64,000 bases of DNA, from IMG/VR virus record IMGVR_UViG_3300020582_000005; one strand, 5' to 3'. Both the position numbers and the translations under genes were made by a program. The notes below the pieces were generated by a model, which worked only from the letters and a program-made list of their open reading frames with translations, was not told where the DNA came from and did not search any database. Shown here one piece after another: positions 11,993 to 58,133 of the stretch (within the stretch, counting starts at the first letter, position 1; each line of letters begins with the position of its first letter). Source of the DNA: a virus (Duplodnaviria > Heunggongvirae > Uroviricota > Caudoviricetes).

Positions 11993-11998
11993 AGCAAA

Positions 11999-15681: not shown

Positions 15682-16337
15682 AGATATTGGCTGCTGTTGA
15701 GTCTTGTCAGGCAAATCGACATTTGCATCAAGCTATGCTCGATACGTGGCTTGGTACTTTATCCACTATGGATATAGACTGTCGTTTCTTTATCGGCGGT
15801 TTGAGTGAGCCTGAAAATCACCTTGAGGTATGGGTTCCTTGTTTAGATACATATGATAATCTAGCCGTTAAAACGAGAGGAATTTGTAGATGGGCTGCTA
15901 CCAATAATTATGATTTTCTTTTCAAGTGTGATACTGATACCGTTGTTAATCCGAAGCGTCTTTTAGAAAGTGGATTCGAACAATATGATTATATGGGCGC
16001 TGAAAATTGTGATAATCTTCCGCCTAGTTTAAATGCGGCTTTTCCTGAATGCGTCGGAGGAAAAATTTCGTTTGCGAGTGGCGGTGCAGGCTATTGGTTA
16101 AGTCGAGATGCTATGTCCTACGTAGCGAATGGACCACTCGCATCATTTCCAGAAGATGTATATGTTTCTGGGGTATTAGGCGATAACTACATTTATCCGG
16201 TATGGCACAAGGGGTACCGCTGGCGACCAGGATCGAAGATTAAAGGCGCAACAACTTTCCATTTATCTAGTGCATTGCAGGTGAAATACCGCCCTGAGTT
16301 GATGTACGAATATTATAAGAAAATACTTGACAAATAA
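15678..16337 (+). CDS. Fringe-like glycosyltransferase, paralog 4
   Basis: YDFLFKCDTDTVVNP, YDYMG and GGAGYWLSRDA are shared with the other three paralogs. Confidence 0.55.
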   Translation: MKILAAVESCQANRHLHQAMLDTWLGTLSTMDIDCRFFIGGLSEPENHLEVWVPCLDTYDNLAVKTRGICRWAATNNYDFLFKCDTDTVVNPKRLLESGFEQYDYMGAENCDNLPPSLNAAFPECVGGKISFASGGAGYWLSRDAMSYVANGPLASFPEDVYVSGVLGDNYIYPVWHKGYRWRPGSKIKGATTFHLSSALQVKYRPELMYEYYKKILDK

Positions 16338-16355
16338 ACTTAAGTTTGCTATTCT
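16327..16355 (+). promoter_or_regulatory. sigma70-like promoter, TTGACA(16327-16332)-17 nt-TATTCT(16350-16355)
   Basis: One of three near-identical promoter copies. It is followed by the RBS AGTGAGG and the ATG at 16373. Confidence 0.6.
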
Positions 16356-16372
16356 AGGAAAGTGAGGTTGAA

Positions 16373-16642
16373 ATGGATTACGGACAGTTTCTTGAAGCCT
16401 TGAGTAAAACCACTGGTTGGTTTCTAGAAAAAGATGGGGCTATTAGACGTGGAGAGGGACCGATAATTGGTAATTTAGGTAGCGGTAAGGAGTGTCCGCT
16501 AATGGCTGTTTTCACTGATGGTACTACTTATGATCAACCTTACTCTAGAGAAGTTTGGCACGCTGCTGATAATTGGCCTGGAAATGATAGTCGTAGTCAA
16601 ATTCGTCACGACCTTCTGAAAGCCTGCCACTTGGAGTCGTGA
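16373..16642 (+). CDS. hypothetical protein
   Basis: 89-aa ORF downstream of the promoter and RBS. Confidence 0.5.
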   Translation: MDYGQFLEALSKTTGWFLEKDGAIRRGEGPIIGNLGSGKECPLMAVFTDGTTYDQPYSREVWHAADNWPGNDSRSQIRHDLLKACHLES

Positions 16643-16812
16643 TGGCTAAACTGACAGTTAATTTAAAAGATGTCACTGTCTCGGATATGCGTCGAAATTT
16701 GGCTCGTGTTTTGTCGAAGATGGACGGCACTCTGATGGTTGAGCACGCTTCTTTTTCAGTGGAAATTTTGTTTCCGAAACGAAAACTTCCGAATTTTCCT
16801 AAGGGTGACTAA
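16642..16812 (+). CDS. small hypothetical protein (56 aa)
   Basis: ATG 16642 MAKLTVNLKDVTVSDMRRNLARVLSKMDG.... It ends in TAATG, which overlaps the next start, and is preceded by AGGTGA. Not in the ORF track because it is under 60 aa. Confidence 0.35.
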   Translation: MAKLTVNLKDVTVSDMRRNLARVLSKMDGTLMVEHASFSVEILFPKRKLPNFPKGD

Positions 16813-16988
16813 TGCACATTTTTCATAAATGGGCGAAGTGGGTAACAATTGAAACCCAACGATTCGGTGCTCGCTATCCTTGGACTGCTCCAGGGAAGTA
16901 TGCGTCAATTGGCACCGTAGAAACTCAAAGACGTGTTTGTGAAATTTGTGGCGAAGTTCAATTTAAAACAGTGGAAAGTTCAATTTAG
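16812..16988 (+). CDS. small hypothetical protein (58 aa) with CxxC
   Basis: ATG at 16812, coupled to the previous stop. Contains VCEICGEV. Confidence 0.35.
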   Translation: MHIFHKWAKWVTIETQRFGARYPWTAPGKYASIGTVETQRRVCEICGEVQFKTVESSI

Positions 16989-16995
16989 GTGACTA

Positions 16996-17334
16996 ATGGA
17001 AATTACCCCAGGACAGCGTTTAGATTTATTGTCAGAAATTAAAACCCTTCTTCCTGACGCTGAATTTTCTGTGGAAGAATCTTTTAGGGGGAAAGATATC
17101 GTTTTTCAATCTGTCTGTAGTTGTTATTCTGAGTATACAACTGAGCCATGTTCTTTTGAAGTATGTATCAGCGGAACATTACCTACATCACAGGAAGATC
17201 AATACACGTTAAATCAAGCCGTTCAATCAAAAGTTAGCCGGTGGGTTGAATGTTCTTTAACGTGGTCTGGATGTGAATGTTGTGATGATGAAATTTCGGT
17301 TTGGACTCGTGTTTATCAAAAGAAGGTAAAATGA
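16996..17334 (+). CDS. hypothetical Cys-rich protein
   Basis: 112 aa, preceded by the second AGGTGACTAATG junction. Confidence 0.45.
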   Translation: MEITPGQRLDLLSEIKTLLPDAEFSVEESFRGKDIVFQSVCSCYSEYTTEPCSFEVCISGTLPTSQEDQYTLNQAVQSKVSRWVECSLTWSGCECCDDEISVWTRVYQKKVK

Positions 17335-17504
17335 AAGACGAACGTACTGGACAGAAAAAGCCGTCTTATCAAAGAAAGAATCCTCGCTCGCATGATTTGT
17401 ATGTAGAGCGAAAGCAAGCTCGTAATCAGGCTCGACCGAAGCAACAATTTCTTGGTGTTAATATTCAAACTGGACTAGGATTAGGGTGGACACGCAATGG
17501 CTAA
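17301..17504 (+). CDS. hypothetical basic protein
   Basis: 67 aa, K/R/Q-rich. Confidence 0.35.
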   Translation: MDSCLSKEGKMKDERTGQKKPSYQRKNPRSHDLYVERKQARNQARPKQQFLGVNIQTGLGLGWTRNG

Positions 17505-17724
17505 AATTGGAAATGTTAATTTGATTCTTGTTGGCGATCAACCTGTATTTACCCTTAAGCCGGGTACACTCGTAAAGTATCAGGAACAATTCTGTATTCG
17601 TAATTGGGCGGGGATGGGCACTCTCGACGGTCAATTGTGGTGGAATAATGAAACTATTGAGAGACTTAAAATGTGCGCTGAAGTTCTGCCGTTTGGTGCC
17701 ACGGTAGAAGTGATTCAGAAATGA
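17497..17724 (+). CDS. hypothetical protein
   Basis: 75 aa, overlapping the neighbouring stop and start. Confidence 0.45.
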   Translation: MAKIGNVNLILVGDQPVFTLKPGTLVKYQEQFCIRNWAGMGTLDGQLWWNNETIERLKMCAEVLPFGATVEVIQK

Positions 17725-18032
17725 GATTGATTAATAAAGATTTGGAGCGAGCCTTTCGTAAATTTAACAAAGATTATTTTAACGATGAGCTTCCCCCTGT
17801 CCTAATTAAATTCGATACTGACAAAGAATTAGATTCGGAGACTTACGGAGAGTTTACCGTTGATGGAGAAATTCTAATCAACGAATCTCTCCGAGAAATT
17901 CCAGAATACTGCTTCATAGTCGTTCTGCACGAAATGTCTCATGTAAAGCATCCTATGAATAGCCACGGGATTGCTCATAAAGCAGTTCTCTACGATCTGT
18001 TTATGCAGGGGGCATATGATCCATATCTTTAA
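17721..18032 (+). CDS. SprT-like zinc metallopeptidase
   Basis: The sequence YGEF...INESL...VLHEMSHVKH carries an HExxH in SprT-domain context. Confidence 0.6.
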   Translation: MRLINKDLERAFRKFNKDYFNDELPPVLIKFDTDKELDSETYGEFTVDGEILINESLREIPEYCFIVVLHEMSHVKHPMNSHGIAHKAVLYDLFMQGAYDPYL

Positions 18033-18294
18033 ACTTTTGTTTGCATTTTTGATAGTTCTATTCTGGATTCTTTTTGTGGTAGCTTTAAGTGCCACGCCAG
18101 TTAGGACATTGACTCTTCCTCTCGATTGCCGTAAATCTAGCATTCAAGCTGGCGTCCCTGTCCGAAGAAACAGTGACGGTCGAATCACCAAGGTGGATGT
18201 TTGCGGAGCCGCAGATTCTGGAGACGATACATTTCGAGATATTCCTTATCAGGCACAGTGTGAACAATTCGATACAGGGCAAATTTGCCGATGA
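18016..18294 (+). CDS. possible small secreted/membrane Cys-rich protein
   Basis: MIHIFKLLFAFLIVLFWILFVVALSA (signal/TM) followed by a Cys-containing tail. It fills the 250-nt gap before the NADAR gene. The start is uncertain. Confidence 0.3.
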   Translation: MIHIFKLLFAFLIVLFWILFVVALSATPVRTLTLPLDCRKSSIQAGVPVRRNSDGRITKVDVCGAADSGDDTFRDIPYQAQCEQFDTGQICR

Positions 18295-18713
18295 TCAATG
18301 GATTCACAGGTCGATATACTTTTCTGTCAAATTTCTATATCTATCCGATCAAATGGAGAGATAGAATTCTCATGTCAGCCGAACACGCCTACCAATCAGA
18401 GAAAACGACCGATCCAATTGACCGTGAGACTATCTACAATGCACCAAATCCGTCACAGGCAAAACGATTGGGCGGAAAGAAATATTTACATAGTTTACGT
18501 GCTGATTGGGATCGCATTAAAGATGCTATCATGCTTCAAATTCTTCGAGAAAAGTTTTTCGACTCGGACTTACGTATGAGACTTTTGGAAACCGGTGATC
18601 AGGAGTTAGTTGAAATGAATTGGTGGAATGACACATATTGGGGAGTCTGCAACGGAATCGGTAAGAATAAACTTGGAAAACTTTTAATGCAAGTTAGAGA
18701 GGAAATAAAATGA
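18285..18713 (+). CDS. NADAR (YbiA/DUF1768) domain protein
   Basis: GRYTFLSNFY, SAEHAYQSEK, RLGG and WWNDTYWGVCNG are the conserved NADAR blocks. Confidence 0.8.
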   Translation: MPMINGFTGRYTFLSNFYIYPIKWRDRILMSAEHAYQSEKTTDPIDRETIYNAPNPSQAKRLGGKKYLHSLRADWDRIKDAIMLQILREKFFDSDLRMRLLETGDQELVEMNWWNDTYWGVCNGIGKNKLGKLLMQVREEIK

Positions 18714-19020
18714 AGCATTTAGCTTGTTTAGGAATCGGTTTAAGCATACTCTTATTTGCATTCGCACCATTCTGCCTCATCGTGTTTGCGATTATAAAAC
18801 CAATGATAGGAGTACCGATATTCGTAATTCTTTTTGCTTATTTACTAGGTTTAGCATTTACACAATAAGGGAGAAAAATGAACTACATCTGCCATAAATG
18901 TCGTGTTCGTCAACCGGTCAAACAAGATGCTCCTGTACCGAAATGTCAAGACTGCGGGGAACAAATGCAGCCGGATGTCCTGAATGATCAGGAAGCAACT
19001 AAGAAAGGAATTTATCGGCG

Positions 19021-19305
19021 ATGGTAGAAATATCTCATAAACGAGAGCCGTTATGGAGCGGAATTAACGTTTGGGAAGTTGAATACAAAGTATATTGGAA
19101 TAAGCGTTGGGAAGTGCGAAAGAAACTTGTCATCGGTTTAAATTCTACATCAGGATGTGAAATGGAAGCGTTTATGTCTGTTGCCGCCGTATATGGTGGT
19201 CGAAAGATTAAAGCTCTGTCAGCAAGATTTCTCGGAACCGGCGTATTAGCTGGACACCCTTGGGAGCTTCAAAAGAAACATTGGCAGGATTTAAATAAGG
19301 CTTGA
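19021..19305 (+). CDS. hypothetical protein
   Basis: 94-aa ORF. Confidence 0.4.
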   Translation: MVEISHKREPLWSGINVWEVEYKVYWNKRWEVRKKLVIGLNSTSGCEMEAFMSVAAVYGGRKIKALSARFLGTGVLAGHPWELQKKHWQDLNKA

Positions 19306-19330
19306 CAATATTCTGAAAGTTTGATATTCT
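19302..19330 (+). promoter_or_regulatory. sigma70-like promoter, TTGACA(19302-19307)-17 nt-TATTCT(19325-19330)
   Basis: AAATAAGGCTTGACAATATTCTGAAAGTTTGATATTCT is almost identical to the copy at 30513-30550. The RBS GTGAGGA and the ATG at 19348 follow. Confidence 0.65.
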
Positions 19331-19347
19331 CTTAAAGTGAGGACAAA

Positions 19348-19698
19348 ATGGAAATAAGCAAGACAGCCCGAGCCAGTATGGGTAAGCAGGTTAAAGAAGT
19401 ACATGTTGAGACTCCAGAAGAGGCGATTCGTCAGCTTCGTCTGAATCGGGAAGCTGGATTGCATATCGGCGATATGTCACGAGTGGACGCTCTTTTAAAG
19501 GCTTACGACGAAGCCATTAAACTAGGCGAAGCTTTAGTTCAAGCTGCACCTATTCATGTAGCGACGGGCATCGAGATGGCTGAGCTTCCGGCTCAGGAAG
19601 AGGACCCGAATCATATGAACGATTTTGAACCGGAACCGGTGACTAGAATTATTCATAATTCAGACGGCTCGAATAAGTTTAAACACGGTGTAGAGTGA
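19348..19698 (+). CDS. hypothetical protein
   Basis: 116 aa, first gene after the promoter. Confidence 0.5.
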   Translation: MEISKTARASMGKQVKEVHVETPEEAIRQLRLNREAGLHIGDMSRVDALLKAYDEAIKLGEALVQAAPIHVATGIEMAELPAQEEDPNHMNDFEPEPVTRIIHNSDGSNKFKHGVE

Positions 19699-19892
19699 AA
19701 TACCTTTACATAGAAACGAAAGGTGATCGTAACTTTAGAATTGAAATAGGTGAACATGAGACTCGACCAGATTCAGCTATTGTAGTAGATTTTATACGGA
19801 ATGTTCAACAAAATGGCTTTTATTATCATGGAGAAGATAAAGCGGGATTTCCTTGGCACTCAATAGTTCAAGTCACTTTAAAGGGAATATGA
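19695..19892 (+). CDS. hypothetical protein
   Basis: 65 aa with ATGA coupling. Confidence 0.4.
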
Positions 19893-20221
19893 TTGAAACG
19901 AAAAATGCTGTGATAGAATCTATAGAAATCACTTCCGATGATCACGGGTGTTTGTCTGCATGGCTCTATCTAGACTACGGCGGAAGTGGTCAAGGATTTG
20001 GTGGATATGCTTTATATCTTCCGAAATCTTTTAAGAACCATACAATCGATTCCGGAGCCGGTCATTTTATTTATCGCTGCATGGAAATAGCTGGAGTGAC
20101 TGAATGGTCTAAGATGAAAGGAAAAACTATCCGTGTCCGTTGTGAACATGTTAAAGTTCACGCTATCGGGCACATTGTCAAGGATGATTGGTTTAATCCG
20201 TCTGAGGATTTTAAATCATGA
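19889..20221 (+). CDS. hypothetical protein
   Basis: An internal ATG at 19889 (MIETKNAV) overlaps the upstream TGA. The ORF-track start at 19853 would overlap the previous gene. Confidence 0.45.
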
Positions 20222-20445
20222 GCTATCTAACGTTTACAGAAATTCCGAATCCGACTCGAAAGACTAAGCGATGGAAGGTTGAAAATATTCAATATGGGGG
20301 ACAACTTGGAATCATTTCATTTAATCCTTCGTGGCGAACGTATGTGTTTTGTAATTCAAATTTGATACAATTAGATGCTGGATGCCTAGAAGAAATCGTA
20401 AATTTTCTTAAAGAACAAACTGGATTGTGGAGAAATAGTCTGTGA
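20218..20445 (+). CDS. hypothetical protein
   Basis: 75 aa. Confidence 0.4.
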
Positions 20446-20654
20446 CAAATTTTCGTTGTAAGTTTTACAAACGTGCTTTCAAGTATAACTCTGCTCCAAT
20501 TGAGTTTGCCAAAATAGATTTAGAAATTGTTGTCAAGGCGTGGGATATAGAAGAGGCTATTTCAAACGGTAAAGCAGTTATCAAAAGTTTGGGAATAACA
20601 GAAGGTATTCTATCGTTAACTGAAATAGAGGAATCAAAATCGTGGGGAATTTGA
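20442..20654 (+). CDS. hypothetical protein
   Basis: 70 aa. Confidence 0.4.
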   Translation: MTNFRCKFYKRAFKYNSAPIEFAKIDLEIVVKAWDIEEAISNGKAVIKSLGITEGILSLTEIEESKSWGI

Positions 20655-20657
20655 TCG

Positions 20658-21158
20658 ATGCGAATTAACTTATTCGGCGGTCCAGGCAGTGGAAAGAGTA
20701 CTACGGCAGCATGGTTGTTCTCGGAATTGAAGCGGCGATTGGTAAGTGTAGAGCACGTCAATGAGTACGTCAAAGCATGGGCCTACGCCAAGCGACCTGT
20801 CGATCACTATGATCAGATTTACATCATGGCGAAGCAGATGCAGTATGAGTACCGGTTTCTGAAGAATGGTATCAAGAACACTGTAACAGATTCGCCGGTT
20901 GATTTGAGTATCGTCTACTCGCCGGAACATTTGAAGCCAGCGATGCGTTTGCTTAGTCAGACGTACAATCAAGACTTCGCTTATGAGAACATTTTCATTC
21001 GTCGGGGAGATAAGCCGTACGTTCAAGAGGGACGATATCAAGATAAGATACGAGCTTTGGAAGTTGATCATAAAATCAAGGAAGAAATTGGCACCATGGT
21101 AGAGTTTGACTTCGGTGATCCGGCTGTGCTAGACTATGTTTTAGCGAGAATCAGATGA
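20658..21158 (+). CDS. P-loop kinase (T4 Pnk-kinase/AAA_33-like)
   Basis: The Walker A sequence INLFGGPGSGKSTTAAWL closely resembles the polynucleotide kinase and nucleotide kinase GxPGSGKST motif. Confidence 0.6.
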   Translation: MRINLFGGPGSGKSTTAAWLFSELKRRLVSVEHVNEYVKAWAYAKRPVDHYDQIYIMAKQMQYEYRFLKNGIKNTVTDSPVDLSIVYSPEHLKPAMRLLSQTYNQDFAYENIFIRRGDKPYVQEGRYQDKIRALEVDHKIKEEIGTMVEFDFGDPAVLDYVLARIR

Positions 21159-21355
21159 AGTGGTTAACGCCTGCACATCCAAAGCACGGAGACAAACGCT
21201 TCCGGAAGATATTTGCGTGGTTTCCAATCGAATGTGATGATGGAACTACTCGTTGGTTAGAAACTCTCTACGTAGAAGAGACTTGGTTTCAAAGTACTAC
21301 TAGGAGTCACTGGCATTGGTGGTCTAAGAAAAAGTATATCACGGTGAACAAATGA
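21155..21355 (+). CDS. hypothetical protein
   Basis: 66 aa. Confidence 0.35.
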   Translation: MKWLTPAHPKHGDKRFRKIFAWFPIECDDGTTRWLETLYVEETWFQSTTRSHWHWWSKKKYITVNK

Positions 21356-22080
21356 AAACTTGGTTGATTTCAGACACGCATTTTAATCATCAGAATATCG
21401 CCACGTACTGTCAACGTCCGGATAATTTTACCGAGTTGATCGTCCGGAACTGGCAGAATAAAGTTCATCCAAATGATATGGTTATCCATGTGGGCGATGT
21501 TTTTATCGGCAAGCCGGATGGCTGGCGTCAGATTTACCCGCTGTTGCCCGGTAGAAAGGTATTGGTACGGGGCAACCACGATAAACATCCGTCTTTGTGG
21601 TGGATGGAGAATGGCTTCGATATCGCCATAGATGCCATGATCTTCCGGCACACGTGGATTACTCATCGACCGGCACAATCATTGCCGAAGCACACTTACT
21701 TGAACATTCACGGTCATTTGCACAACATCTGGCATGGTTTTCACAAAGATGAGCCAGATACCCGAGTGATCAATAACCAAGGCCGATTGCATAACCGTTG
21801 GCAGCGTTTGTTTGCTGTCGAATACGCTGATTACGGTCCTGTTGAGTTTGAAGATTTTCTTGCTCATCCGGACAAGTATCAGGCTCGTGGTCCCGCTGCC
21901 GAAGCTGAAGCAGATTATGAGGCACAAGTCTTTCAGGACGAGAAAGAAGCAAAACGTAAAGAACGACTTGCGAACCACATCTGTAAATCAGATAAGTGCC
22001 GTTGCCCAAAAGCAGAGGCGAATAGAACTCCTGAAATGATTGCCGAGAACTATTCGCCCTCTCCTATGGAGCGGGACTAG
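21352..22080 (+). CDS. calcineurin-like metallophosphoesterase
   Basis: Contains the ordered MPP motifs LISDTHFNH, GDVF and GNHD. Confidence 0.75.
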   Translation: MKTWLISDTHFNHQNIATYCQRPDNFTELIVRNWQNKVHPNDMVIHVGDVFIGKPDGWRQIYPLLPGRKVLVRGNHDKHPSLWWMENGFDIAIDAMIFRHTWITHRPAQSLPKHTYLNIHGHLHNIWHGFHKDEPDTRVINNQGRLHNRWQRLFAVEYADYGPVEFEDFLAHPDKYQARGPAAEAEADYEAQVFQDEKEAKRKERLANHICKSDKCRCPKAEANRTPEMIAENYSPSPMERD

Positions 22081-22508
22081 TGAGAAAATACACATCGATT
22101 TTCGCTACTGCTGAGCATAAACTGATTACTTCCATCAAAGATGTGAAGGGCCGGTGGAGCTATCATACAATGGGTTTCTTTTTAAACGGAGAAGCAATTG
22201 GGCACGGTTCGTTAAATTTAATAAGTAAAAGACGTAAAATTTTTGAAACTAGTGCCACGGAAATTTTCAAAAAGTTTAGAAACAAAGGGCATGGGATTCA
22301 TCTTTATATAGCTCTGATTGAAACAGCCAGGAGCATTGGAGCTAAACAAATTCAATCTGATAATACGTTGAATCAATTTTCTCGACGTATGTGGCAGGAG
22401 AAATTAGCGAAAATTTATCCGGTTAAAATAAGAAAAACTAGACGACCATGTTCTCATTGTGACCAGGATGGATTGAGACGAAAATACTTCTACATAGAGC
22501 TAACATGA
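22080..22508 (+). CDS. hypothetical protein (possible GNAT-like fold)
   Basis: 142 aa. The GNAT assignment is weak and rests on HGIHLYIALIETARSIGAKQI. Confidence 0.35.
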   Translation: MRKYTSIFATAEHKLITSIKDVKGRWSYHTMGFFLNGEAIGHGSLNLISKRRKIFETSATEIFKKFRNKGHGIHLYIALIETARSIGAKQIQSDNTLNQFSRRMWQEKLAKIYPVKIRKTRRPCSHCDQDGLRRKYFYIELT

Positions 22509-22605
22509 GTTGGGATACATTAACTGCCCCGCAATGGGCTACTTTGTTCGGTGTTCTCTTGATCGCTGTAGTCTTGATTGCAGCCGATTTGATAAATGAT
22601 GAACC

Positions 22606-22872
22606 ATGGGGAGGATTCAAGCTATGAATGGTATGACAACGTTACAGTATTTCGACAAGCAGAAGCGGGATGAAGTCTATAACCGATTACGTCAATCAGA
22701 GGAACCAAATGAGCGTCAAGTTATACGTTATTCGGACCCTGTTCCGATCATGCTCAGTGAAGAGGAATTCAAGTTGGATCAGAAAAATCGAGTCATATAC
22801 AAAACTGGGTATTTTCTAGCGTATCCCGAGGAGTGTACATGGAAAAGATTGAAGAGAAAATCAGCAGAATAG
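22606..22872 (+). CDS. hypothetical protein
   Basis: 88 aa. Confidence 0.4.
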   Translation: MGRIQAMNGMTTLQYFDKQKRDEVYNRLRQSEEPNERQVIRYSDPVPIMLSEEEFKLDQKNRVIYKTGYFLAYPEECTWKRLKRKSAE

Positions 22873-23109
22873 TTCTTTCCGCACTGATGTTTGTGGCGAT
22901 TCTTTTTATACTCATACCACTATTCGGTAAGTTGATCGCTCTAGGATTGTTGAAGTTGTTCACGTACTATCTATGATCGTAAACTTAGATAGATTCGAAC
23001 ACTGGAAAGAAATACTCGATAGGTTTGAAGCCGGAGAATTGATTGACACGACAGCCAGTAAAATGCTTCAAGATTTAAGAGACAAAGAACGTAAAGAATT
23101 TGAGGAATC

Positions 23110-23679
23110 ATGCCCGACAACGACCAAGAAATAAAAGATCATTTGCTTGAAAAGTTTAATGAGCTAGCTGAGAAAGAAGTAATAGATAAGGCAAAGCGAG
23201 ACGATTTTATGGCGAGAATGCAGAAAAAGATGCAAATTGAACTAATGAAAGTTCAGCAAGCTTGTTCACATAGGAAGGGGCAGGCGTGGACTATCCCGAC
23301 TCCGGATATAAATAGCGAGAGTTTCCTAAAGTTTGAACCTAAACTTCCTTTATTTGTGTTCGATTTCTGTATAATCATGCACACATTTGTAGATGGCAAT
23401 CAAATGATCAAATGTGTCATGTGCAACCGAACGTGGTATAACACTGATCCTGATTTTCCTGAAGCTTTGAAAATGGTCATGGCTTCTTCAAATAAGCCTT
23501 CCGCTAGTGAAAGATTAATCAATGGAGCGACGTCTGCTCTCCCGCCTAACATAGTCACGTATGTGACTCCCCTGAAAAAGAGTTTCTGGAAACGGTTTTG
23601 GATAGCTTTGACTACTCCGAATGAAAGAAAAGCTTTAAATGATGCAATAGAAGAATTCAAGGGAGATGATAATGTTTAG
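23110..23679 (+). CDS. hypothetical protein
   Basis: 189 aa. Confidence 0.45.
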   Translation: MPDNDQEIKDHLLEKFNELAEKEVIDKAKRDDFMARMQKKMQIELMKVQQACSHRKGQAWTIPTPDINSESFLKFEPKLPLFVFDFCIIMHTFVDGNQMIKCVMCNRTWYNTDPDFPEALKMVMASSNKPSASERLINGATSALPPNIVTYVTPLKKSFWKRFWIALTTPNERKALNDAIEEFKGDDNV

Positions 23680-23914
23680 TCGGGAGGACCTTGTAATACC
23701 AGTCAGTGGTTGGGTACCGAATATCGAGCCGGGTAAAAAATGCACTCACGGAGTTTATATTCCGTCAACTCAAGAGCAGCAATTGTTTGCAGATAATTGC
23801 CAAGTATGCACCGGCTTGATAGGATATTTAACCAGGACCGGAAAGACTTTGGAAGAGGCTAATGCGAGAGTTAAATTTTTATGGAATCGTTTAGATAAAA
23901 AAGAGGAACAATGA
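23666..23914 (+). CDS. hypothetical protein
   Basis: 82 aa. Confidence 0.4.
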   Translation: MIMFSREDLVIPVSGWVPNIEPGKKCTHGVYIPSTQEQQLFADNCQVCTGLIGYLTRTGKTLEEANARVKFLWNRLDKKEEQ

Positions 23915-24061
23915 AGTTAAATCTCGACCGGGTACAAGAACTTTCCGAAACCTTGGCTCTCTTATTAAAAGACCGTCATCCTGGCTTAGTAACGTGGAGA
24001 GAATCTGTACTACAAATTTTAGAGCAATTACGAAAAGAACTACTTTAGGAGAAGCAATTAA

Positions 24062-24529
24062 ATGGCGGATTCAAAAATTGCAATAGCAAAAACCCTGATT
24101 AATGAGGGCGGGTATGTCGACAACCCAAACGATTCGGGTGGCCCGACAAAATACGGTATCACTCAGAAGGATATGCCTGGAGTGAACATTCAGGATATAA
24201 CTTCAGATCAGGCAACGGCGTATTATCAGGAGCACTATTGGAAGAGTCTCTATTCTGAAATTAGCTCCCAACTAGTGACCGATAAAATTTTTGATATGGG
24301 CGTCCTGTTCGGCGTCGGCGAAGCTATCAAACTACTTCAAATTCTCCTAGGCGTCCAGGTGGACTGCGACTTCGGTCCCCATACCCTAGCCTGCTTGAAT
24401 CAAATTGATCCTGCAAATTTGTTGACAACGTACAAGACGGCTCTAGTTACATATGCTATCGGTATCGCTAACGATAAGCCACAGGATCGGGTGTTCCTGA
24501 ACGGGTGGATACGTCGAGTGAATAGTTAA
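24062..24529 (+). CDS. endolysin, GH108 N-acetylmuramidase with C-terminal peptidoglycan-binding domain
   Basis: The N-terminus AKTLINEGGYVDNPNDSGGPTKYGIT is the GH108 signature, with the C-terminal region typical of PG_binding_3. Confidence 0.8.
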   Translation: MADSKIAIAKTLINEGGYVDNPNDSGGPTKYGITQKDMPGVNIQDITSDQATAYYQEHYWKSLYSEISSQLVTDKIFDMGVLFGVGEAIKLLQILLGVQVDCDFGPHTLACLNQIDPANLLTTYKTALVTYAIGIANDKPQDRVFLNGWIRRVNS

Positions 24530-24823
24530 ATGATCTATGATTTTGAATTTAAAAAGCTGACTCCGAAGGAACGAGAAATACTCCGAGTTAATTCTCGATT
24601 GATCGATCAACTGTTAGAACGCTGTCCTGGTGAATGCGGTAATCCAGATTGTAAGTACCCGTTACCGTCAGTAGATAATTATCGCACTGTCGAATTTGGT
24701 GAAGTTTGTGAATTGTGCTACTATATGTATAAGATTTTGTATGAAAAAGCATACTTCTTAAAACTACACCGAGAATGGAAGCGAGATCACCCGGATAAAA
24801 ATGGAAACACAGAAATATATTAG
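24530..24823 (+). CDS. hypothetical Cys-containing protein
   Basis: 97 aa. Confidence 0.4.
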   Translation: MIYDFEFKKLTPKEREILRVNSRLIDQLLERCPGECGNPDCKYPLPSVDNYRTVEFGEVCELCYYMYKILYEKAYFLKLHREWKRDHPDKNGNTEIY

Positions 24824-24833
24824 GAGAATAAAA

Positions 24834-25190
24834 ATGAATAGACGAACATCAAATCCGTATGTAGAAAATTTTACAGATAGGGAAGATATTATCAACAACT
24901 ACCATGCTCCTGATGACGCCCTGAAAGGAGCTAAGATATATCTAGCTTGGTATGGCTACGGCAATTACGACGGTCAATCGTTAGTGATCTTTGAAAAAGA
25001 CGGCCAGCTTTATGAAGTAAACGGTTCACACTGCTCGTGCAACGGATTAGAGGGGCAGTGGTCGCCTGAAGAAACTTCATGGAAGGCTCTTTCTGGACGT
25101 AACATAGACGACAATCATACAACCGGAGCCGCAGTGGCAAATGAACTTCTGAAGAAATTAGTTAAAAAACATCTTGACAAGAAGAAGTAA
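24834..25190 (+). CDS. hypothetical protein
   Basis: Start at MNRRTSNPYV after the RBS TAGGAGAATAAAA. The earlier ORF-track start overlaps the upstream gene. Confidence 0.4.
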   Translation: MNRRTSNPYVENFTDREDIINNYHAPDDALKGAKIYLAWYGYGNYDGQSLVIFEKDGQLYEVNGSHCSCNGLEGQWSPEETSWKALSGRNIDDNHTTGAAVANELLKKLVKKHLDKKK

Positions 25191-25218
25191 ATTTGTTAAT
25201 CTAACAATAGAGGCGAAC

Positions 25219-25437
25219 ATGGAAAAAGAAACAAAAGAGCAGCGATTCACCCGGCTTGCCACAGCCCGAGTTAATAAGGCTATCAAGGCAATCCGAGTTG
25301 TCGGTAGGTTGGCGAAGCAGAATACCAATCCGGAGTACGCTACTAAAATTGTCAGTGCATTGGTAGCGGCTGTGGACTTGGTTGAGGCTCAGTTCCAGCC
25401 TAAGGCAGACGAGGAAAAGACGGGATTCGCACTCTAA
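25219..25437 (+). CDS. hypothetical protein
   Basis: Start at MEKETKEQRF after GAGGCGAAC. Confidence 0.4.
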   Translation: MEKETKEQRFTRLATARVNKAIKAIRVVGRLAKQNTNPEYATKIVSALVAAVDLVEAQFQPKADEEKTGFAL

Positions 25438-25514
25438 GACATGACCGGGAAAGTGGAGGCGAGTGGCAGTACCACCGCTTTCGGCGAGTACCGGTCTAAT
25501 TTTAAGGAGATAAA

Positions 25515-25883
25515 ATGTGCATAGAAGAAGTTAGTAATAAGAAACCTGTGCTGAGTGGTTATGGTTACAAAGTTTTCCGAGTAGACAACAATACTTTGTA
25601 TTCCGCATTCATGGACACGCCGAATCCGGGGAATGAGTGGCTTATAGCAGAAGATAGTGGACATGACGAACCTGGATTTCATATTTATACGACACGGGAA
25701 AAAGCTGACGAATGTGTTCGTTGGTACGATAACTTTATATGTAGGCGTGAGAAACCAGAAAACCGAGACATTTATAAGGTTTTTAAGGTTCGATATCGCA
25801 AAGCTACAAAACAAGGAATTGGAGACGGCGGATTCACTAAGAATCCACGAATAATCATAGCACAAGAAATGTACATTCTTTAG
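25515..25883 (+). CDS. hypothetical protein
   Basis: The RBS TAAGGAGATAAAATG precedes it. It is preferred over the antisense ORF 25434-25913 on strand context. Confidence 0.45.
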   Translation: MCIEEVSNKKPVLSGYGYKVFRVDNNTLYSAFMDTPNPGNEWLIAEDSGHDEPGFHIYTTREKADECVRWYDNFICRREKPENRDIYKVFKVRYRKATKQGIGDGGFTKNPRIIIAQEMYIL

Positions 25884-25891
25884 GAGAAACC

Positions 25892-26425
25892 ATGCGAGAC
25901 TGGTTAAAGGCACTTGGAATCACAGTAGCTTCAATGTCGCCACTAGGATTAATTTTCCTGATGCTTTTACCGGTACCGACACATACTATGGCGGTTAATC
26001 CTAGTCCCTACGATGTTCCAGCTTATCGCCAAGCCTTCTTTGACGCTAGCAGAATTTATGGCAAAGCTGGCTGCGGCGATATAACTCTTGCTGAAATGAC
26101 CGCTGAGAATTCACTCAGAACTGGCGTACCAGCTAACATAATCGCTGCCATCATCAGCGTCGAATCGTCCTGCAATCCGCTGGCGATCAGCAATCGTGGC
26201 GCAGTTGGTTTGACTCAAGTGAACGTTAAAGTGCAATCTGAAAAATTTGAACAATTTAGTGCAATCAATCTTTTTAATCCGAAAGAGAACATGCGAGTCG
26301 GCACTCAAATTATGTCTGAAATGATCAAACAATATGGACTACGCTCTGGTATAAGTCACTACGACGGCGTAGGACCAGAAGCTGACGCCTATGTTCTAAA
26401 GGTGTTGGCACTGGCTGGCAAATGA
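25892..26425 (+). CDS. SLT-domain lytic transglycosylase with N-terminal signal-anchor
   Basis: The N-terminal hydrophobic LGITVASMSPLGLIFLMLL is followed by the SLT core IISVESSCNPLAISNRGAVGLTQV. The RBS GGAGAAACC lies upstream. Confidence 0.75.
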   Translation: MRDWLKALGITVASMSPLGLIFLMLLPVPTHTMAVNPSPYDVPAYRQAFFDASRIYGKAGCGDITLAEMTAENSLRTGVPANIIAAIISVESSCNPLAISNRGAVGLTQVNVKVQSEKFEQFSAINLFNPKENMRVGTQIMSEMIKQYGLRSGISHYDGVGPEADAYVLKVLALAGK

Positions 26426-26552
26426 ACGATCTTATCAAACGCAATTCTGAACTAGAACAAGAGAATATTCAACTAAAGAAACGTGCCGAAAAAGCAGAAC
26501 AAACACTACTAGAAATTCAAGCAGCGTGGAAAACTATCACCAGAATTATGAG

Positions 26553-27518
26553 ATGCTATTCATGAGTTTACCTGGGGCTACAGACGTTGGTGTAGTGATC
26601 GGTCGATTTCAAGTGCCGAATCTTCACGAAGGTCATCGGAGTCTACTCGATTTAGTCGCAACTAGACATAAACGGGTTTTAATTCTACTAGGATCGCCTG
26701 CGTGGAAGGGTGGTAAGAGTGATCCTCTTGACTACCATACTCGGGCATTGATGTTTCATCAAGAGTATCCAGACTTTCTAGTTGCACCAGTGACAGATAC
26801 GCAATCAAATGATCAGTGGTCAGAGCAAGTAGATAAAATTATCCAGAGTGTATTTTCACTTTGTCAAGTGACACTTTATGGAGCACGAGACAGTTTCATC
26901 GATCAATATAATGGGCGATACAAAACAAGCGAAATTATACAGTCTGTTGAATCTTCTGGCACAACTGTTCGAGAATATACAGCAGCCATGCCTCAGGAAA
27001 AAGAAAGTTTCCGTGCCGGTGCAATCTATGGAATTCTAAACAATCCAAGTCTGATAGTGCCATGCGTTGACGGCGCTGTCTTAAGAAAGAGCGAGGATGA
27101 AATTCGAGTTGTATTGATCAGGAAACCAGATGAAAAACTTCTCAAATTTCCTGGTGGGAAAGTGGAATACGATGACAAATCCTACGAATCCGCCGTCAAT
27201 CGAGAAGTCCGAGAAGAAACCGGACTTGAAGTCGGAACCCCGATCTACGTCACGTCCAGTTGTAGTCTGCCTGATTGGAGAGCTATCGGCGCTGGAATTG
27301 CTGTACATACTTCTCTCTTTGCGCTCCGATTTATATATGGCGCTCCCAAAGGTCGAGACGACGCAGCTGAAGCCGGATGGTTCAACCTCTTTGAAATAAA
27401 AGAGGCGCAGATGGAAGATTGCCATAAAAAGTTGTTGACAACTTTGAAAGCTTGGGTTAGTATAAATTCAGGAGACTTCTTCAATGACGAATTTACTGCT
27501 GCAGACCGACTCATATAA
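26553..27518 (+). CDS. nadM: bifunctional NMN adenylyltransferase / Nudix hydrolase (NadM-Nudix type)
   Basis: The N-terminus VGVVIGRFQVPNLHEGH carries the (H/T)xGH nucleotidyltransferase motif. The C-terminal Nudix box is GGKVEYDDKSYESAVNREVREETGLE. The start is uncertain (26526, 26553 or 26562). Confidence 0.8.
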   Translation: MLFMSLPGATDVGVVIGRFQVPNLHEGHRSLLDLVATRHKRVLILLGSPAWKGGKSDPLDYHTRALMFHQEYPDFLVAPVTDTQSNDQWSEQVDKIIQSVFSLCQVTLYGARDSFIDQYNGRYKTSEIIQSVESSGTTVREYTAAMPQEKESFRAGAIYGILNNPSLIVPCVDGAVLRKSEDEIRVVLIRKPDEKLLKFPGGKVEYDDKSYESAVNREVREETGLEVGTPIYVTSSCSLPDWRAIGAGIAVHTSLFALRFIYGAPKGRDDAAEAGWFNLFEIKEAQMEDCHKKLLTTLKAWVSINSGDFFNDEFTAADRLI

Positions 27519-28920
27519 ACTGACACACTTCAAACAATACCCGCCAAAGACACAGTATGTCTACTCTTATCTAGAAAGTCGTGGCGGTCAATTCGACAAC
27601 ACAGTATTCTTTGGTCTGCAATATCTCTTGAAGAAATACTTGGTAGGGAAAGTATTCACACCGAAAGATATAGAAGCTGCAAATCGATTTGCTTTGGCAC
27701 ATTTCAGTCGAACCGATTGTTTCAACTATACCGGATGGTATCAGTTGTACAATAAATACGATGGTGTTCTGCCTATTAAGATTAAGGCAGTTCCTGAAGG
27801 CTCTGTTATTCCAGTTCATAATGTTTTGATGACAATCGAGAATACGGATGCGGACTTCCCGTGGCTGACGAATTATCTCGAAACGATTCTAATGAAGGTG
27901 TGGTATCCGACAACGGTTGCAACCCTGTCTCGGGAAATCAAGAAACTTATCACAGACTATCATACAAAGACAGGTTCAGACCTTAGTGGCATAAATTTCA
28001 AGCTACACGACTTTGGATACAGAGGGGTCAGTTCAGAGGAAACAGCAGGAGTTGGCGGGGCCGCTCATCTTCTTAATTTTCAGGGCACGGATACAATTGC
28101 CGGAATCTTGCATTTGCAAGAATATTATTCTAAAATCGAAGCAAAAGAGATAGTCACATCTACTCTTAAAAATGAGGGTGGTCAATTCCCAGGGCCAGGG
28201 ATGTACGGATTCAGTATTCCTGCAGCAGAGCATTCAACAATCACATCCTGGGGCAAAGATAACGAATATCAGGCAATGAAAAATATGCTTGATCAATATC
28301 CCGGCACTGTGGCCATTGTCAGTGATTCTTACGATTTGAAGGAAGCCGTCAATGTAGTTCTTGGATGGAAACTTCGAAATCAGATCATTCACCGAGATGG
28401 GGCTGTCGTGGTACGTCCAGACTCAGGGGACCCGGCGACTGCTGTAGGAAATGTCCTCGAATGGCTCGATAGTAAATATGGGTCCGAAGTAAATAGTAAA
28501 GGATTCAAGGTTCTTAATCCACACGTTAGAGTGATTCAAGGAGACGGAGTAAACTATGAATCCATCAGAGGGATTCTAGCGCATATCCACAATCGGGGGT
28601 GGGCGGCTGAAAACGTCGCATTCGGCATGGGTGGGGCGCTTCTACAGAGACTGGACCGAGATACGCAACGATTTGCTATCAAATGTTCCTCCATTACAGT
28701 TGACGGTGTGGAAAGAGACGTATGGAAAGAGACGATCACTGATACAAGTAAGGCTAGTAAACGGGGCCGCTTAGTTCTCGGGCACAATGGCAGAGAATTC
28801 ATCACCGTCAAAGCTGAACCCGGTCTGATATACACAAGCGATAATCTAAAAACAGTCTTTGAAAACGGGGAACTAAAAATCGACCAGACGGTAGAAGAAA
28901 TTAGGAAAAGGGCAGAGTAA
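27484..28920 (+). CDS. nadV: nicotinamide phosphoribosyltransferase (NAMPT/NadV)
   Basis: 478 aa. The N-terminus LLQTDSYKLTHFKQYP is typical of NAMPT. Length and domain order fit. Confidence 0.9.
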   Translation: MTNLLLQTDSYKLTHFKQYPPKTQYVYSYLESRGGQFDNTVFFGLQYLLKKYLVGKVFTPKDIEAANRFALAHFSRTDCFNYTGWYQLYNKYDGVLPIKIKAVPEGSVIPVHNVLMTIENTDADFPWLTNYLETILMKVWYPTTVATLSREIKKLITDYHTKTGSDLSGINFKLHDFGYRGVSSEETAGVGGAAHLLNFQGTDTIAGILHLQEYYSKIEAKEIVTSTLKNEGGQFPGPGMYGFSIPAAEHSTITSWGKDNEYQAMKNMLDQYPGTVAIVSDSYDLKEAVNVVLGWKLRNQIIHRDGAVVVRPDSGDPATAVGNVLEWLDSKYGSEVNSKGFKVLNPHVRVIQGDGVNYESIRGILAHIHNRGWAAENVAFGMGGALLQRLDRDTQRFAIKCSSITVDGVERDVWKETITDTSKASKRGRLVLGHNGREFITVKAEPGLIYTSDNLKTVFENGELKIDQTVEEIRKRAE

Positions 28921-29312
28921 TGGGTAGACCTCGTATTTATCCCGTTGAAACGTTGCCGCAAAGAGCACGCATTAACTTTAAACGATGGAGAAATAGTTTA
29001 ACTTTAAAAGAATTTACTTTGAAATTATATACATATCGCTTAAAATACAGGTTCAATTTAACTCCCGAGACTGTAAAGCGAATGTTTGAAAAACAGAGTG
29101 GTTTATGTAAACTATGTAGAGTAGCATTGAAGAAATGGGTTATAGATCACGATCACAAATGTTGTCCCGGCAGGCGATCTTGTGGTAAATGTGTTCGAGG
29201 TCTTTTGTGTATCCCATGCAACGCAATGCTTGGGCAACTCGACCGCATGTTAAGAATCGGATTTAAAAGAATCTGTAAGTATTTGAGGCTAAAGCATGAC
29301 TTGGCTATATGA
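28920..29312 (+). CDS. Endonuclease VII-like HNH nuclease
   Basis: CKLCRVALKKWVIDHDHKCCPGRRSCGKCVRGLLCIPCNAMLG matches the T4 gp49/Endo VII zinc-binding HNH signature. It is a paralog of the gene at 52764-53171. Confidence 0.7.
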   Translation: MGRPRIYPVETLPQRARINFKRWRNSLTLKEFTLKLYTYRLKYRFNLTPETVKRMFEKQSGLCKLCRVALKKWVIDHDHKCCPGRRSCGKCVRGLLCIPCNAMLGQLDRMLRIGFKRICKYLRLKHDLAI

Positions 29313-29417
29313 AGCTTTGTTCTGTCCTCAACACGGTTTATTAAAGCCAGATAATTTTATGGCTATCTGGGCAACAATTCAAGTCTCAACAATTCACGCT
29401 AGGTTTTATCTAACGAA

Positions 29418-29807
29418 GTGGTTCGGCATATGAACACGATCTACATTCCATCGCTTGCCCATATTTTTATCGTTGAGGATGATCTAAGCCGTATTGGATG
29501 GTTTATTAATAAACTCGGTTCCAAAATTATTGGAATACACGACAAACCTGCAAATGCTATCCAAGCCCTGCGAGCATTTAACATAAACGAAATTGATATG
29601 TTCTTTCTCGATCACGATCTAGGCGGTCCATTCGAGCCACCTTTTAGCACTGATATAGCGAAGTATATGTTTGAACAAGACCCAAAGATTGGCAGACGAA
29701 CTATCATACACAGCTGCAATCCCGCTGGTACACGAAACCTTGAAGTGATTCTGCCGGGAGCGATACAGCTTCCGTTTGGAACATTTGATATTCAGGACAA
29801 AGAATGA
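29418..29807 (+). CDS. hypothetical protein, possible receiver(REC)-like fold
   Basis: IFIVEDD...IDMFFLDHDLGG weakly recalls a CheY-like acidic pocket. Low confidence. Confidence 0.35.
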   Translation: MVRHMNTIYIPSLAHIFIVEDDLSRIGWFINKLGSKIIGIHDKPANAIQALRAFNINEIDMFFLDHDLGGPFEPPFSTDIAKYMFEQDPKIGRRTIIHSCNPAGTRNLEVILPGAIQLPFGTFDIQDKE

Positions 29808-29976
29808 GAGAAAAACTACATAAAGCCGGGATAACTTTCGATGGGCACGTAACAAACGGAAGTCTTGACGCTCAAATAAAAGTCATCGTAGATTTCTTAG
29901 AGTCTGAGCGTGGCCCTGACAGTGGGGGAGAATACGCTAAAGAGGATTGGGACGAATTAATAGAGAGGATTAAATC

Positions 29977-30525
29977 GTGACGAGCATTAAACAGTTTTAC
30001 CTTTTAAAATTGATTGAAGAGTGTTCCGAAGTAGCTCAACAAGCTGCCAAGCAAATACAGTTTGGACATTTCTCAACAAGTCAGACAACTGGCAAGAGAT
30101 ATGACAATACAGCGTTGCTACGTGCTGAAGTTAACGATATTCTCGCCACGCTAGATGTACTAATGGACTTGGGAGAGCTTCCTGAAATTTCTCCTCAAGA
30201 ATTGCTTGAAGCTAAAAACAAGAAACGAAATCGAATCATGGAGTATCTACAACACTCACAGGCACTTGGTCTAGTTGAAAAAAACTTCAAGGATTATGAA
30301 GCCGTGGAATATCCACACCGATTTGGATCTATGTCCGATTTGTGCATAGACTGCGGAATCGGGACTGGTTGGTTTGGACGTAATTATGGAAAACCGTGTC
30401 CTGAAAGAAAACAAACTAAAAAATTTGAACGGGGATATTGCGGTTGTAGAGAATATCCTGACGGAGATGCTTGCCTTCTACCTAACAACCACGACGGGAG
30501 GCACGACTGGCAAAATAAGCCTTGA
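29977..30525 (+). CDS. MazG-like nucleotide pyrophosphohydrolase (putative)
   Basis: KLIEECSEVAQQ and the downstream E/D pattern resemble the MazG EExxE helix. The C-terminal Cys cluster is extra. Confidence 0.45.
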   Translation: MTSIKQFYLLKLIEECSEVAQQAAKQIQFGHFSTSQTTGKRYDNTALLRAEVNDILATLDVLMDLGELPEISPQELLEAKNKKRNRIMEYLQHSQALGLVEKNFKDYEAVEYPHRFGSMSDLCIDCGIGTGWFGRNYGKPCPERKQTKKFERGYCGCREYPDGDACLLPNNHDGRHDWQNKP

Positions 30526-30550
30526 CAAACATCTGAAAGTTTGATATTCT
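30522..30550 (+). promoter_or_regulatory. sigma70-like promoter, TTGACA(30522-30527)-17 nt-TATTCT(30545-30550)
   Basis: AAAATAAGCCTTGACAAACATCTGAAAGTTTGATATTCT is a near-identical copy of 19292-19330. The ATG of the integrase lies at 30558. Confidence 0.65.
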
Positions 30551-30557
30551 TCTGATT

Positions 30558-31490: not shown

Positions 31491-31595
31491 CACAGATTAC
31501 ATGATTTTAGGTATATTTAGTTTACTGTTAATTGCAATCGGCTCCATATGTTATGCTGTAATTTGTTTAATTCTAGACAAATAAAAAGAGGAGAT

Positions 31596-33611: not shown

Positions 33612-33612
33612 G

Positions 33613-33633
33613 CAATCAATGCACGATTGATTG
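33613..33633 (+). promoter_or_regulatory. palindromic element copy 1: CAATCAAT-gcacg-ATTGATTG followed by TAC
   Basis: An 8-bp inverted repeat read directly from the sequence. It lies upstream of an RBS (AAGGAG) and the ATG at 33664. Confidence 0.5.
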
Positions 33634-34022
33634 TACTGCGACTGAGAACAAAGGAGTTACGAAATGTCGAAGAAATGCGAACATTGCGTCTATCCCGGCT
33701 GGAATCCGGTTTCGGTTTCTGACGGAAATGCTTACTCCTACAACTACGAATTACGACAGGACTCGCACATCGAATACCGGCCCTGTATATATTGCAATAA
33801 AGACGGCAAGAAACCGAGGACGTACCCGCACCTATGAGAAAAATTACGATCTATCGGGACGATTCAACAACGCAAGTCGTTTACGACCGAGTGAAACATT
33901 TCTTCTGGACGGCAAATAACTCTGTGTTAGTGATCGCCCAATATACAAAACCACCGAAGCACCGTTATATCCAGTGGCCTCGGGAGCGGTTTTGCTGGTT
34001 CAAGGACGAAGAAGATAAAGTG

Positions 34023-58120: not shown

Positions 58121-58133
58121 ATTATTTCCATCC

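Follow-up and report, generated by a model that had tools for sequence, protein, structure and literature searches.

A 64,000-nucleotide stretch of a tailed-phage genome (IMG/VR virus record IMGVR_UViG_3300020582_000005, Caudoviricetes; the whole stretch is here called the window) carries at several of its gene junctions promoter-like sequences that resemble one another over about 38 nucleotides, far beyond the -35 and -10 hexamers, and the question arises whether such similarity requires anything other than RNA polymerase to read it. A preliminary description had noted three such promoters, one of them in front of the integrase gene, and had deduced from their extended likeness that an additional sequence-specific factor is at work. 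All three were confirmed by reading the sequence, and a scan of the full window, which had not been possible earlier, brought to light a fourth copy at 25165-25202 (TTGACAAGAAGAAGTAAATTTGTTAATCT), located with a repeat finder. With a probability that we put at about three in four, these four elements, designated P1 to P4, are promoters for the primary (sigma70/sigmaA-type) RNA polymerase holoenzyme of the host, and their 38-nucleotide similarity would then be the product of selection on contacts made by the polymerase.

Promoter copies in the window and in related phages

The pattern TTGACA-N17-TATTCT has three exact matches in the window, all on the + strand (at 16327, 19302 and 30522), where shuffled sequence leads one to expect 0.01. 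The sequence GAAAGTTTGATATTCT is found exactly at 19315-19330 and 30535-30550, and with three mismatches at 16340-16355; over 38 nt, P2 and P4 (19293-19330 and 30513-30550) are 89% identical, and the copy at 16318-16355 has 66% identity to the reference. The looser pattern TTGACA-N14-TGnTAnnnT matched at seven sites, with 0.055 expected: 9124, 16327, 19302, 25174 and 30522 on the + strand, and 50111-50139 and 53230-53258 on the - strand. All seven are in the sense orientation with respect to the local genes, and all have a C directly 5' of TTGACA. A position weight matrix (PWM) trained on related phages alone, without the window sequence, and controlled with 30 shuffles, returned 43.5 bits for P4, 41.7 for P1, 39.6 for P2, 24.2 for P3 and 14.3 for the site at 50111, the shuffle maximum being 12.3; the same matrix found no match in the 7 kb upstream of the window.

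In P1-P4, as in the three looser sites, the -35 hexamer is a perfect TTGACA, and the spacer is exactly 17 bp long in all seven, as it is in all 43 copies from the wider clade that are described below. P1-P4 all have TG at -15/-14, and their -10 hexamer is TATTCT in three copies (P1, P2 and P4) and TAATCT in P3, with A-11 and T-7 kept throughout. Inside each promoter lies the stop codon of the upstream gene, either as the TGA of TTGACA (P2 and P4) or as a TAA in the spacer (P1 and P3). In P1-P3 a distance of 16-17 nt separates the end of the -10 element from an ATG with GTGAGG or AGAGG in front of it; in P4 the distance to the ATG is 7 nt. The perfect -35, the 17-bp spacer, the TGn and TAnnnT motifs, the sense orientation, the distance to an ATG led by a Shine-Dalgarno (SD) sequence in P1-P3, and the conservation at matching junctions together support the earlier assignment of these sequences to the sigma70 type.

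P1 (16317-16355, +) consists of an A-rich upstream stretch, a C, the -35 at 16327-16332, a spacer ending in TTTGc and the -10 at 16350-16355. Its spacer contains a 12-bp palindrome, AAACTTAAGTTT, as well as the TAA stop (16335-16337) of a glycosyltransferase-like gene. The following leader and gene (16356-16642, +) comprise an SD sequence GTGAGG at 16362-16367 and a gene at 16373-16642 that encodes 89 amino acids with no family match. In L003/L024 the P1 orthologue is identical at 27 of 29 core positions; the gene at 16373-16642 is missing from the sister phage, where P1 would drive the next gene (window 16642-16812) directly. P2 (19292-19330, +) is made up of AAATAAGGC, the -35 at 19302-19307, the spacer ATATTCTGAAAGTTTGA and the -10 at 19325-19330. 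The TGA within its -35 terminates the open reading frame (ORF) at 19021-19305, and the leader and gene behind it (19331-19698, +) have an SD sequence GTGAGG at 19337-19342 and encode, at 19348-19698, 116 amino acids with no family match; orthologues of P2 are present in L003/L023/L024. P3, the fourth copy (25164-25202, +), has its -35 at 25174-25179, the spacer AGAAGAAGTAAATTTGT and its -10 at 25197-25202; the 3' end of a gene at ~24834-25190 forms the upstream half of the promoter. Its leader and gene (25203-25437, +) contain an SD sequence AGAGG at 25209-25213 and a gene at 25219-25437 for 72 amino acids, which is conserved together with the promoter in L024, L280 and L281. P4 (30512-30550, +) is composed of AAAATAAGCC, the -35 at 30522-30527, the spacer AACATCTGAAAGTTTGA and the -10 at 30545-30550; the TGA within its -35 is the stop of a MazG-like ORF at 29977-30525, and orthologues occur in nine further relatives. 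That one copy stands at the integrase was also borne out: directly behind P4 is a tyrosine-recombinase gene (30558-31490, +; 310 amino acids; PF00589, E 1.2e-9; phrog_1, E 1e-25). The ORFs upstream of P2 and P4 both end in AAT AAG GCT/CCT TGA, yet the first has no family and the second a MazG-like PHROG; since their annotations differ in this way, the shared AAATAAG is more likely to reflect a constraint on the DNA than on the encoded protein.

Relatives with the same gene order were retrieved by motif scanning and protein-anchored look-ups (contigs L003/L023/L024, L018, L126 and L280-L287; integrases 94-51% identical). P1, P2, P3 and P4 are all found at matching gene junctions in related contigs, and at least 10 related phage contigs carry such promoters there. 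Over all related loci there are 43 unique copies of TTGAC-N15-TGnTAnnnT, every one on the sense strand; when aligned, they show an invariant C-36 and a T-17 in at least 90% of copies, neither of which the search pattern required. In the close clade T-17 reaches 93%, and position -16 is T in 72% rather than a purine. The information profile of the 29 unique close-clade copies, which bears out the earlier observation that conservation extends past the two hexamers, is high at -45 to -37 (AAATAAAG), -36 to -29 (CTTGACAA), -20 to -13 (RAGTTTGA) and -12 to -7 (TAYTCT). The UP-like stretch at -45 to -37 (resembling an upstream element), of which AAATAAAG is the consensus, carries 0.4-1.6 bit per position, and the middle of the spacer (-26 to -21) just 0.02-0.37 bit. 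P4 orthologues behave in the same way over the full range of integrase identity: the -35, spacing, TG and -10 are constant, and the upstream half of the spacer is free to vary, the sequences between TTGACA and TATTCT being aacatctgaaagtTTGa, gctatctagagcgTGc, aacaaaccggagtTTGa, ccactttggagtTTGc and gctagtttgaatcTGa. One match within a gene of the sister phage (L024:1502) has no conserved counterpart in the window and was disregarded.

The same architecture is met well outside this clade. The pattern TTGACAA-N8-AARTTTGnTATTCT matched 22 viral stretches, two of them related to the window, and 97 stretches of bacterial genomes, mainly from Bacillota, Chloroflexota, Patescibacteria and Poribacteria. 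Long open frames enclose only 28% of the bacterial matches but 87% of random positions, the outcome that genuine promoters should give; another test of context, which asked whether an ORF begins within 150 nt, made no distinction (0.61 for the matches, 0.62 for random positions). With any TAnnnT as the -10, TTGACAA-N8-AARTTTGn was found at no fewer than 120 viral loci, in over 100 unrelated viral contigs; among the matches listed, the -10 is TATAAT in 42% and a C precedes TTGACA in 50%. In some other uncultured phages, on IMG/VR contigs unrelated to the window (L004/L012/L016 and L304), two or three TTGACAA-N8-AARTTTGnTATWCT promoters fall within ~2 kb, so the design is reused in multiple copies elsewhere as well.

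These results do not support the earlier deduction of an extra factor. The conserved positions all coincide with known zones of contact with RNA polymerase, the mid-spacer is nearly devoid of information, the P4 orthologue of the sister phage has a differing spacer (GCTATCTAGAGCGTGC) with its -35, TG, -10 and spacing retained, and the architecture recurs in the unrelated viruses and bacteria just described. In published work the proximal UP subsite spans -45 to -37 and the spacer upstream of -15 lacks specific contacts (PMC2613000), C is often enriched at the 3' end of UP elements, TRTG, frequent in Firmicutes, is a variant of the extended -10, and transcription starts cluster around a point 7 bp past the -10 (bioRxiv 10.1101/2025.01.23.634641). 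Each of P1-P4 would accordingly be described as an assembly of near-optimal forms of every known core-promoter element: an A-rich stretch resembling the proximal UP subsite, C-36, the -35 TTGACAA, a 17-bp spacer, the '-16 region' and extended -10 (T-17, and TG at -15/-14), and a -10 TAYTCT with the critical A-11 and T-7. Each would be packed into a gene junction, with the upstream stop codon within the promoter, and transcripts are predicted to start ~7 nt after the -10, which would give P1-P3 a leader of ~10 nt containing GTGAGG and the integrase message from P4 no leader. One such design would have been reused throughout the clade, its copies kept alike by selection on polymerase contacts with no separate DNA-binding factor. 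What the sequences show directly is the layout of the elements, its statistics, its pattern of conservation in orthologues and the wide distribution of the spacer motif. The points of transcription start at P1-P4, the identity of the sigma factor, the strength and timing of the promoters, and a leaderless translation of the integrase are what we infer from the DNA; binding of the alpha subunit's C-terminal domain to the UP-like stretch, and stimulation by it, are putative.

Other explanations of the shared sequence

Some observations weigh against polymerase contacts as a full account. Textbook sigma70 reads chiefly A-11 and T-7 of the -10, yet the 29 close-clade copies have T-9 in 83% and C-8 in 93%, and RAG at -20 to -18 is conserved beyond the classical TGn contact. 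In a general viral sample with like upstream architecture, A prevails at -9 (78%) and -8 (75%), and none of the 112 matches listed has TATTCT. T-9/C-8 are under selection, because the mid-spacer has been randomised, and the inner -10 bases go with lineage: TAYTCT in the close clade, TAGnnT in more distant relatives, and TATAGT in the Tunturiibacter phage Tunturi_3. The spacers of some relatives, moreover, are palindromic in a fixed register with compensatory changes. The simplest cause of T-9/C-8 would be a sequence preference of the host's own sigma factor. An extra factor is not required, and what survives of that idea is a residue, the clade-specific T-9/C-8 and RAG at -20 to -18, which textbook sigma70 contacts leave unexplained. 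The residue could instead betray a spacer-borne operator, or a site for an activator (around GAAAGTTTGA or CAAAC-N8-GTTTG), at which a phage or host DNA-binding protein co-regulates a set of genes that includes the integrase; we regard this as unlikely. Besides T-9/C-8, the conserved RAGTT at -20 to -16 speaks for it, as does a tendency of core positions 5-22 (from the C of the -35 to the G of TGn) to form an inverted repeat, with 66% of positions paired against 60.9% in shuffles (0 of 500) and at most 42% in slid registers, although the shuffle control is inflated by kinship of the copies and the pairing structure was derived from those same copies. P3 orthologues read CAAACCC-GACA-GGGTTTG, CAAACCT-GACA-AGGTTTG and CAAACTT-AATG-AAGTTTG, P4 of L281 reads CAAACTT-TTGA-AAGTTTG, and the 18-bp perfect palindrome at the 53230 site (CATAAGTTGCAACTTATG) shares its register with the 7+7 inverted repeats of the P3 orthologues in L024, L280, L281 and L284. 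However, the mid-spacer is unconstrained, more than half of the copies fail to pair at the inner positions of the repeat, AARTTTG is a frequent spacer motif in unrelated phages and bacteria, and the palindromes differ so much in sequence that one protein could not read them all. Nor is there the 14-18 bp dyad with a common half-site expected of operators like those of phages lambda, 434 and P22, since among P1-P4 a dyad is present only in P1 (12 bp) and P4 (5+5), and P2 and P3 have none. Scans of ~60 window ORFs against Pfam, and also PHROG, revealed no helix-turn-helix or sigma domain, with the limit that many ORFs had no match at all, so that absence is not shown; the gene at 2476-2874, proposed earlier as a helix-turn-helix candidate, matched nothing in either collection. 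The spacer hairpins were also considered as terminators and rejected: the P3 and P4 regions of the window fold no better than shuffles (z -0.25 and -0.87), and a stable fold is confined to some orthologues (P3 of L024, z -3.4). The inverted repeats are accordingly treated as a lead and not as a finding. It would be a long shot that T-9/C-8, RAG at -20 to -18 and the register-locked spacer palindromes jointly mark a dedicated phage or host regulator, or a switch in DNA structure, which coordinates a promoter set including that of a leaderless integrase in a clade of soil, probably acidobacterial, phages. Far less probable is that a phage-specific sigma factor, or a modified polymerase, reads these promoters, in the manner of middle or late ones. 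This would explain TAYTCT and the lineage-specific inner bases of the -10, but a perfect TTGACA with a 17-bp spacer and TGn is the signature of a primary sigma, no sigma or RNA polymerase domain was seen in the ORFs scanned, and the identical motif with TATTCT lies in intergenic DNA of the 97 bacterial genomes.

The similarity might also be mainly historical, the copies being recent duplicates, or homogenised by recombination or gene conversion, and serving as portable junctions for gene shuffling after the manner of the promoter-early stem-loops (PeSLs) of T4-type phages; this we consider improbable. P2 and P4 do share 26 of 29 core positions, which places them in the top 1.7% of pairs, and the + arm of the genome is highly mosaic, with all four promoters adjoining an insertion, deletion or replacement relative to related phages (L280 and L281 were left out of this comparison of breakpoints, their chain having been mis-joined through the P2/P4 similarity). 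The gene directly behind P1 is the one absent from the sister phage; the gene at ~24834-25190 has been inserted between a sequence ending in GAAATATATTA and ATTTGTTAATCT, so that the half of P3 with the UP stretch and the -35 comes from the 3' end of this gene; and in sister phage L024 two AAATAAAG repeats upstream of P2 enclose an additional gene. PeSLs, like these elements, are sigma70 promoters with AT-rich upstream sequence, an SD sequence and an ATG, and they mediate shuffling (PMC2839356; PMC4122927). Yet copies at matching junctions persist where integrase identity has fallen to just 51%, and the mid-spacer has been randomised, which argues for selection and not for recency. Non-orthologous pairs between genomes likewise reach 25-27 of 29, and gene conversion between P2 and P4 was rejected, as their similarity is high but no outlier, both simply lying near the clade consensus. 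Two junctions do fall inside the motif (in the P3 spacer, and in the AAATAAAG repeats at P2), while most breakpoints in the + arm are elsewhere; the P3 insertion has its left junction away from any promoter, and no stem-loop terminator stands beside P1-P4. The least probable explanation of all is that the neighbouring tyrosine recombinase uses the repeats as its target sites, which would be comparable to attP or to cassette sites, with short inverted arms around an 8-bp centre. P4 is directly upstream of the integrase gene and contains CAAAC-N8-GTTTG, but these arms are merely the ends of the -35 and extended -10 elements, P2 and P3 are without a dyad, the breakpoints occur at promoter edges rather than at the spacer centre, and no tRNA or att-like repeat was seen.

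The integrase junction, the phage and its likely host

At P4 the integrase ATG follows 7 nt after TATTCT (30545-30560), leaving no room for an SD sequence, and a distance of 6-7 nt separates the two elements in all ten relatives whose integrases are at least 51% identical (L023 and L280-L287, ~9966-10003, except in L285, ~6021-6058). The start codon is supported by the conservation of the N-terminus from residue 1 in homologues, the first internal methionine being residue 45, inside the conserved N-terminal domain. A 43% identical homologue (L410, 2967-3003) keeps the arrangement as TAAACT, 6 nt and ATG, and a 44% identical one (L409) has instead a 17-nt leader with GGAGG. Because the short gap is conserved among the relatives, their integrase mRNA is predicted to be leaderless, as in the window. 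The integrase gene of Tunturi_3 (L408, 13357-13394, -) likewise begins 6 nt from a -10; outside the catalytic motif no homology between its product and the integrase of the window was detected.

The three looser family members differ in their setting. That at 9124-9152 (+; cTTGACAGAAGCCTTCAGCTATGTTAATCT) is a candidate only, below the close-clade PWM threshold; it lies inside the end of an epimerase gene (8371-9333) and upstream of a gene at 9311-10309. In the structural arm, the site at 50111-50139 (-; cTTGACAATAGCCTCGTGTTGTGATATACT) is followed by AAGGAG and an ATG, and the site at 53230-53258 (-; cTTGACATAAGTTGCAACTTATGCTAAGAT), whose spacer is the palindrome discussed above, comes directly after a major-capsid-like gene. 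A possible further promoter outside the strict family (27435-27463, +; TTGACAACTTTGAAAGCTTGGGTTAGTAT) has a 17-bp spacer and no TG, is preceded by aaaaagttg, and sits 20 nt upstream of the NAMPT start and a GGAG.

The window derives from an uncultured phage of soil type, with a + arm (1-34 kb) that encodes helicase and nuclease proteins, a sugar-modification cluster, NAD-salvage functions, small proteins of no known function, the tyrosine recombinase and an SPFH protein, and a - arm (34.4-64 kb) that encodes a portal, a large terminase, a major-capsid-like protein and tail proteins. No near-identical match to the region was found among 50,697 phage records, and a look-up of the protein at the right end of the window brought up no record. 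The closest cultured relative is Tunturi_3, a phage of Tunturiibacter (Acidobacteriota), with a portal 35% identical (E 9e-87) and a terminase 25% identical (window 55982-60266, -; L407/L408, PP885686.1); it is a podovirus from tundra soil with a host among the Acidobacteriota (PMC11924767). Since the best cultured match is Tunturi_3, and the contigs related to the window come from soil and peat metagenomes, the data suggest a host among the Acidobacteriota, a suggestion on which the guanine-plus-cytosine (GC) content weighs, at ~42% in the window against 51% in Tunturi_3 (97.6 kb). The scan of bacterial genomes gave 97 single-copy matches and no prophage relative, hence no direct host; a tRNA search found none, hence no clue from an att site in a tRNA gene; and an Rfam search of the whole window returned no family, so the repeat is not a known RNA element.

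Gene content varies between close relatives. The 129-amino-acid gene in front of P3 (phrog_8792, ~24834-25190) is absent from the sister phages, and a block encoding a NadR-like/NUDIX protein, NAMPT and endonuclease VII (26427-29803) is absent from L024, L283 and L285. Auxiliary genes (8371-16337, 18285-18713, 29418-29807 and 31548-32483) specify a cluster for sugar-nucleotide modification with two epimerases, an aminotransferase and glycosyltransferase-like proteins, a NADAR protein, a cREC_REC receiver-domain protein and the SPFH/Band 7 protein, the gene for which directly follows that of the integrase. A hairpin GCAATCAA...TTGATTGT occurs twice where the + arm ends (33612-33666 and 34022-34076, +; copies 73% identical), each time followed by AAAGGAG and an ATG, in front of two small ORFs; the stems are of -12.7 to -15.2 kcal/mol (z -1.7 and -2.5), and one copy is found also in the sister phage (L023, ~12712-12767).

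The analysis provides a working promoter consensus, AAATAAAGCTTGACAAAC-N7-RAGTTTGATAYTCT, for a clade of uncultured soil phages whose nearest cultured relative infects Acidobacteriota, the promoters of which are, to our knowledge, essentially undescribed. The consensus lets transcription units be annotated in these genomes and offers candidate strong promoters for genetic tools. It also draws attention to a conserved, probably leaderless integrase, the expression of which may be controlled at translation. No new mechanism is revealed, and the promoters belong to a type that is already known.

Comparison with known systems

P1-P4 are closest to the extended -10 or '-16 region' (TRTGn) promoters of sigma70 and sigmaA, as found in strong phage early promoters and in sigmaA promoters of Gram-positive bacteria, with which they share TTGACA, a 17-bp spacer, T-17 and TG, an A-rich stretch at -45 to -37 and a C 5' of the -35. 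They differ in that most close-clade copies have TTTG, with T and not a purine at -16, and in that the -10 is TAYTCT, with T-9 and C-8 conserved, not TATAAT. Tunturi_3 has at least 10 sites of the form gcTTGACA-N14-TGnTAnnnT, against 0.17 expected, with A-rich sequence upstream (often aaataaa) and an integrase start placed as at P4, but its -10 is mostly TATAGT and its genome has the higher GC content noted above. The paper on Tunturi_3 does not mention promoters (PMC11924767).

The cI gene of phage lambda, transcribed from PRM, is a leaderless phage regulatory gene, and the integrase junction resembles it in that the -10 ends 6-7 nt before the ATG, which makes an SD sequence impossible. Here, in contrast, the gene is that of a tyrosine recombinase, the promoter has a perfect -35 and an extended -10, and the leaderless state is predicted. 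The promoter set as a whole is partly PeSL-like in its working, but is not a PeSL. As in the PeSL cassettes of T4-type phages (Arbiol et al. 2010, PMC2839356; Comeau et al. 2014, PMC4122927), there are repeated sigma70-consensus promoters with AT-rich sequence upstream and an SD sequence and start codon 3' (P4 being without the SD sequence), set among small genes without known function in a variable region, with insertions and deletions between related phages alongside. P1-P4, on the other hand, have no adjacent stable stem-loop terminator, and the sequence upstream of their -35 is coding, so that the promoters overlap the preceding gene; the conserved stretch is ~40-60 nt rather than ~100, the phage is not T4-like, and recombination at the motif is putative.

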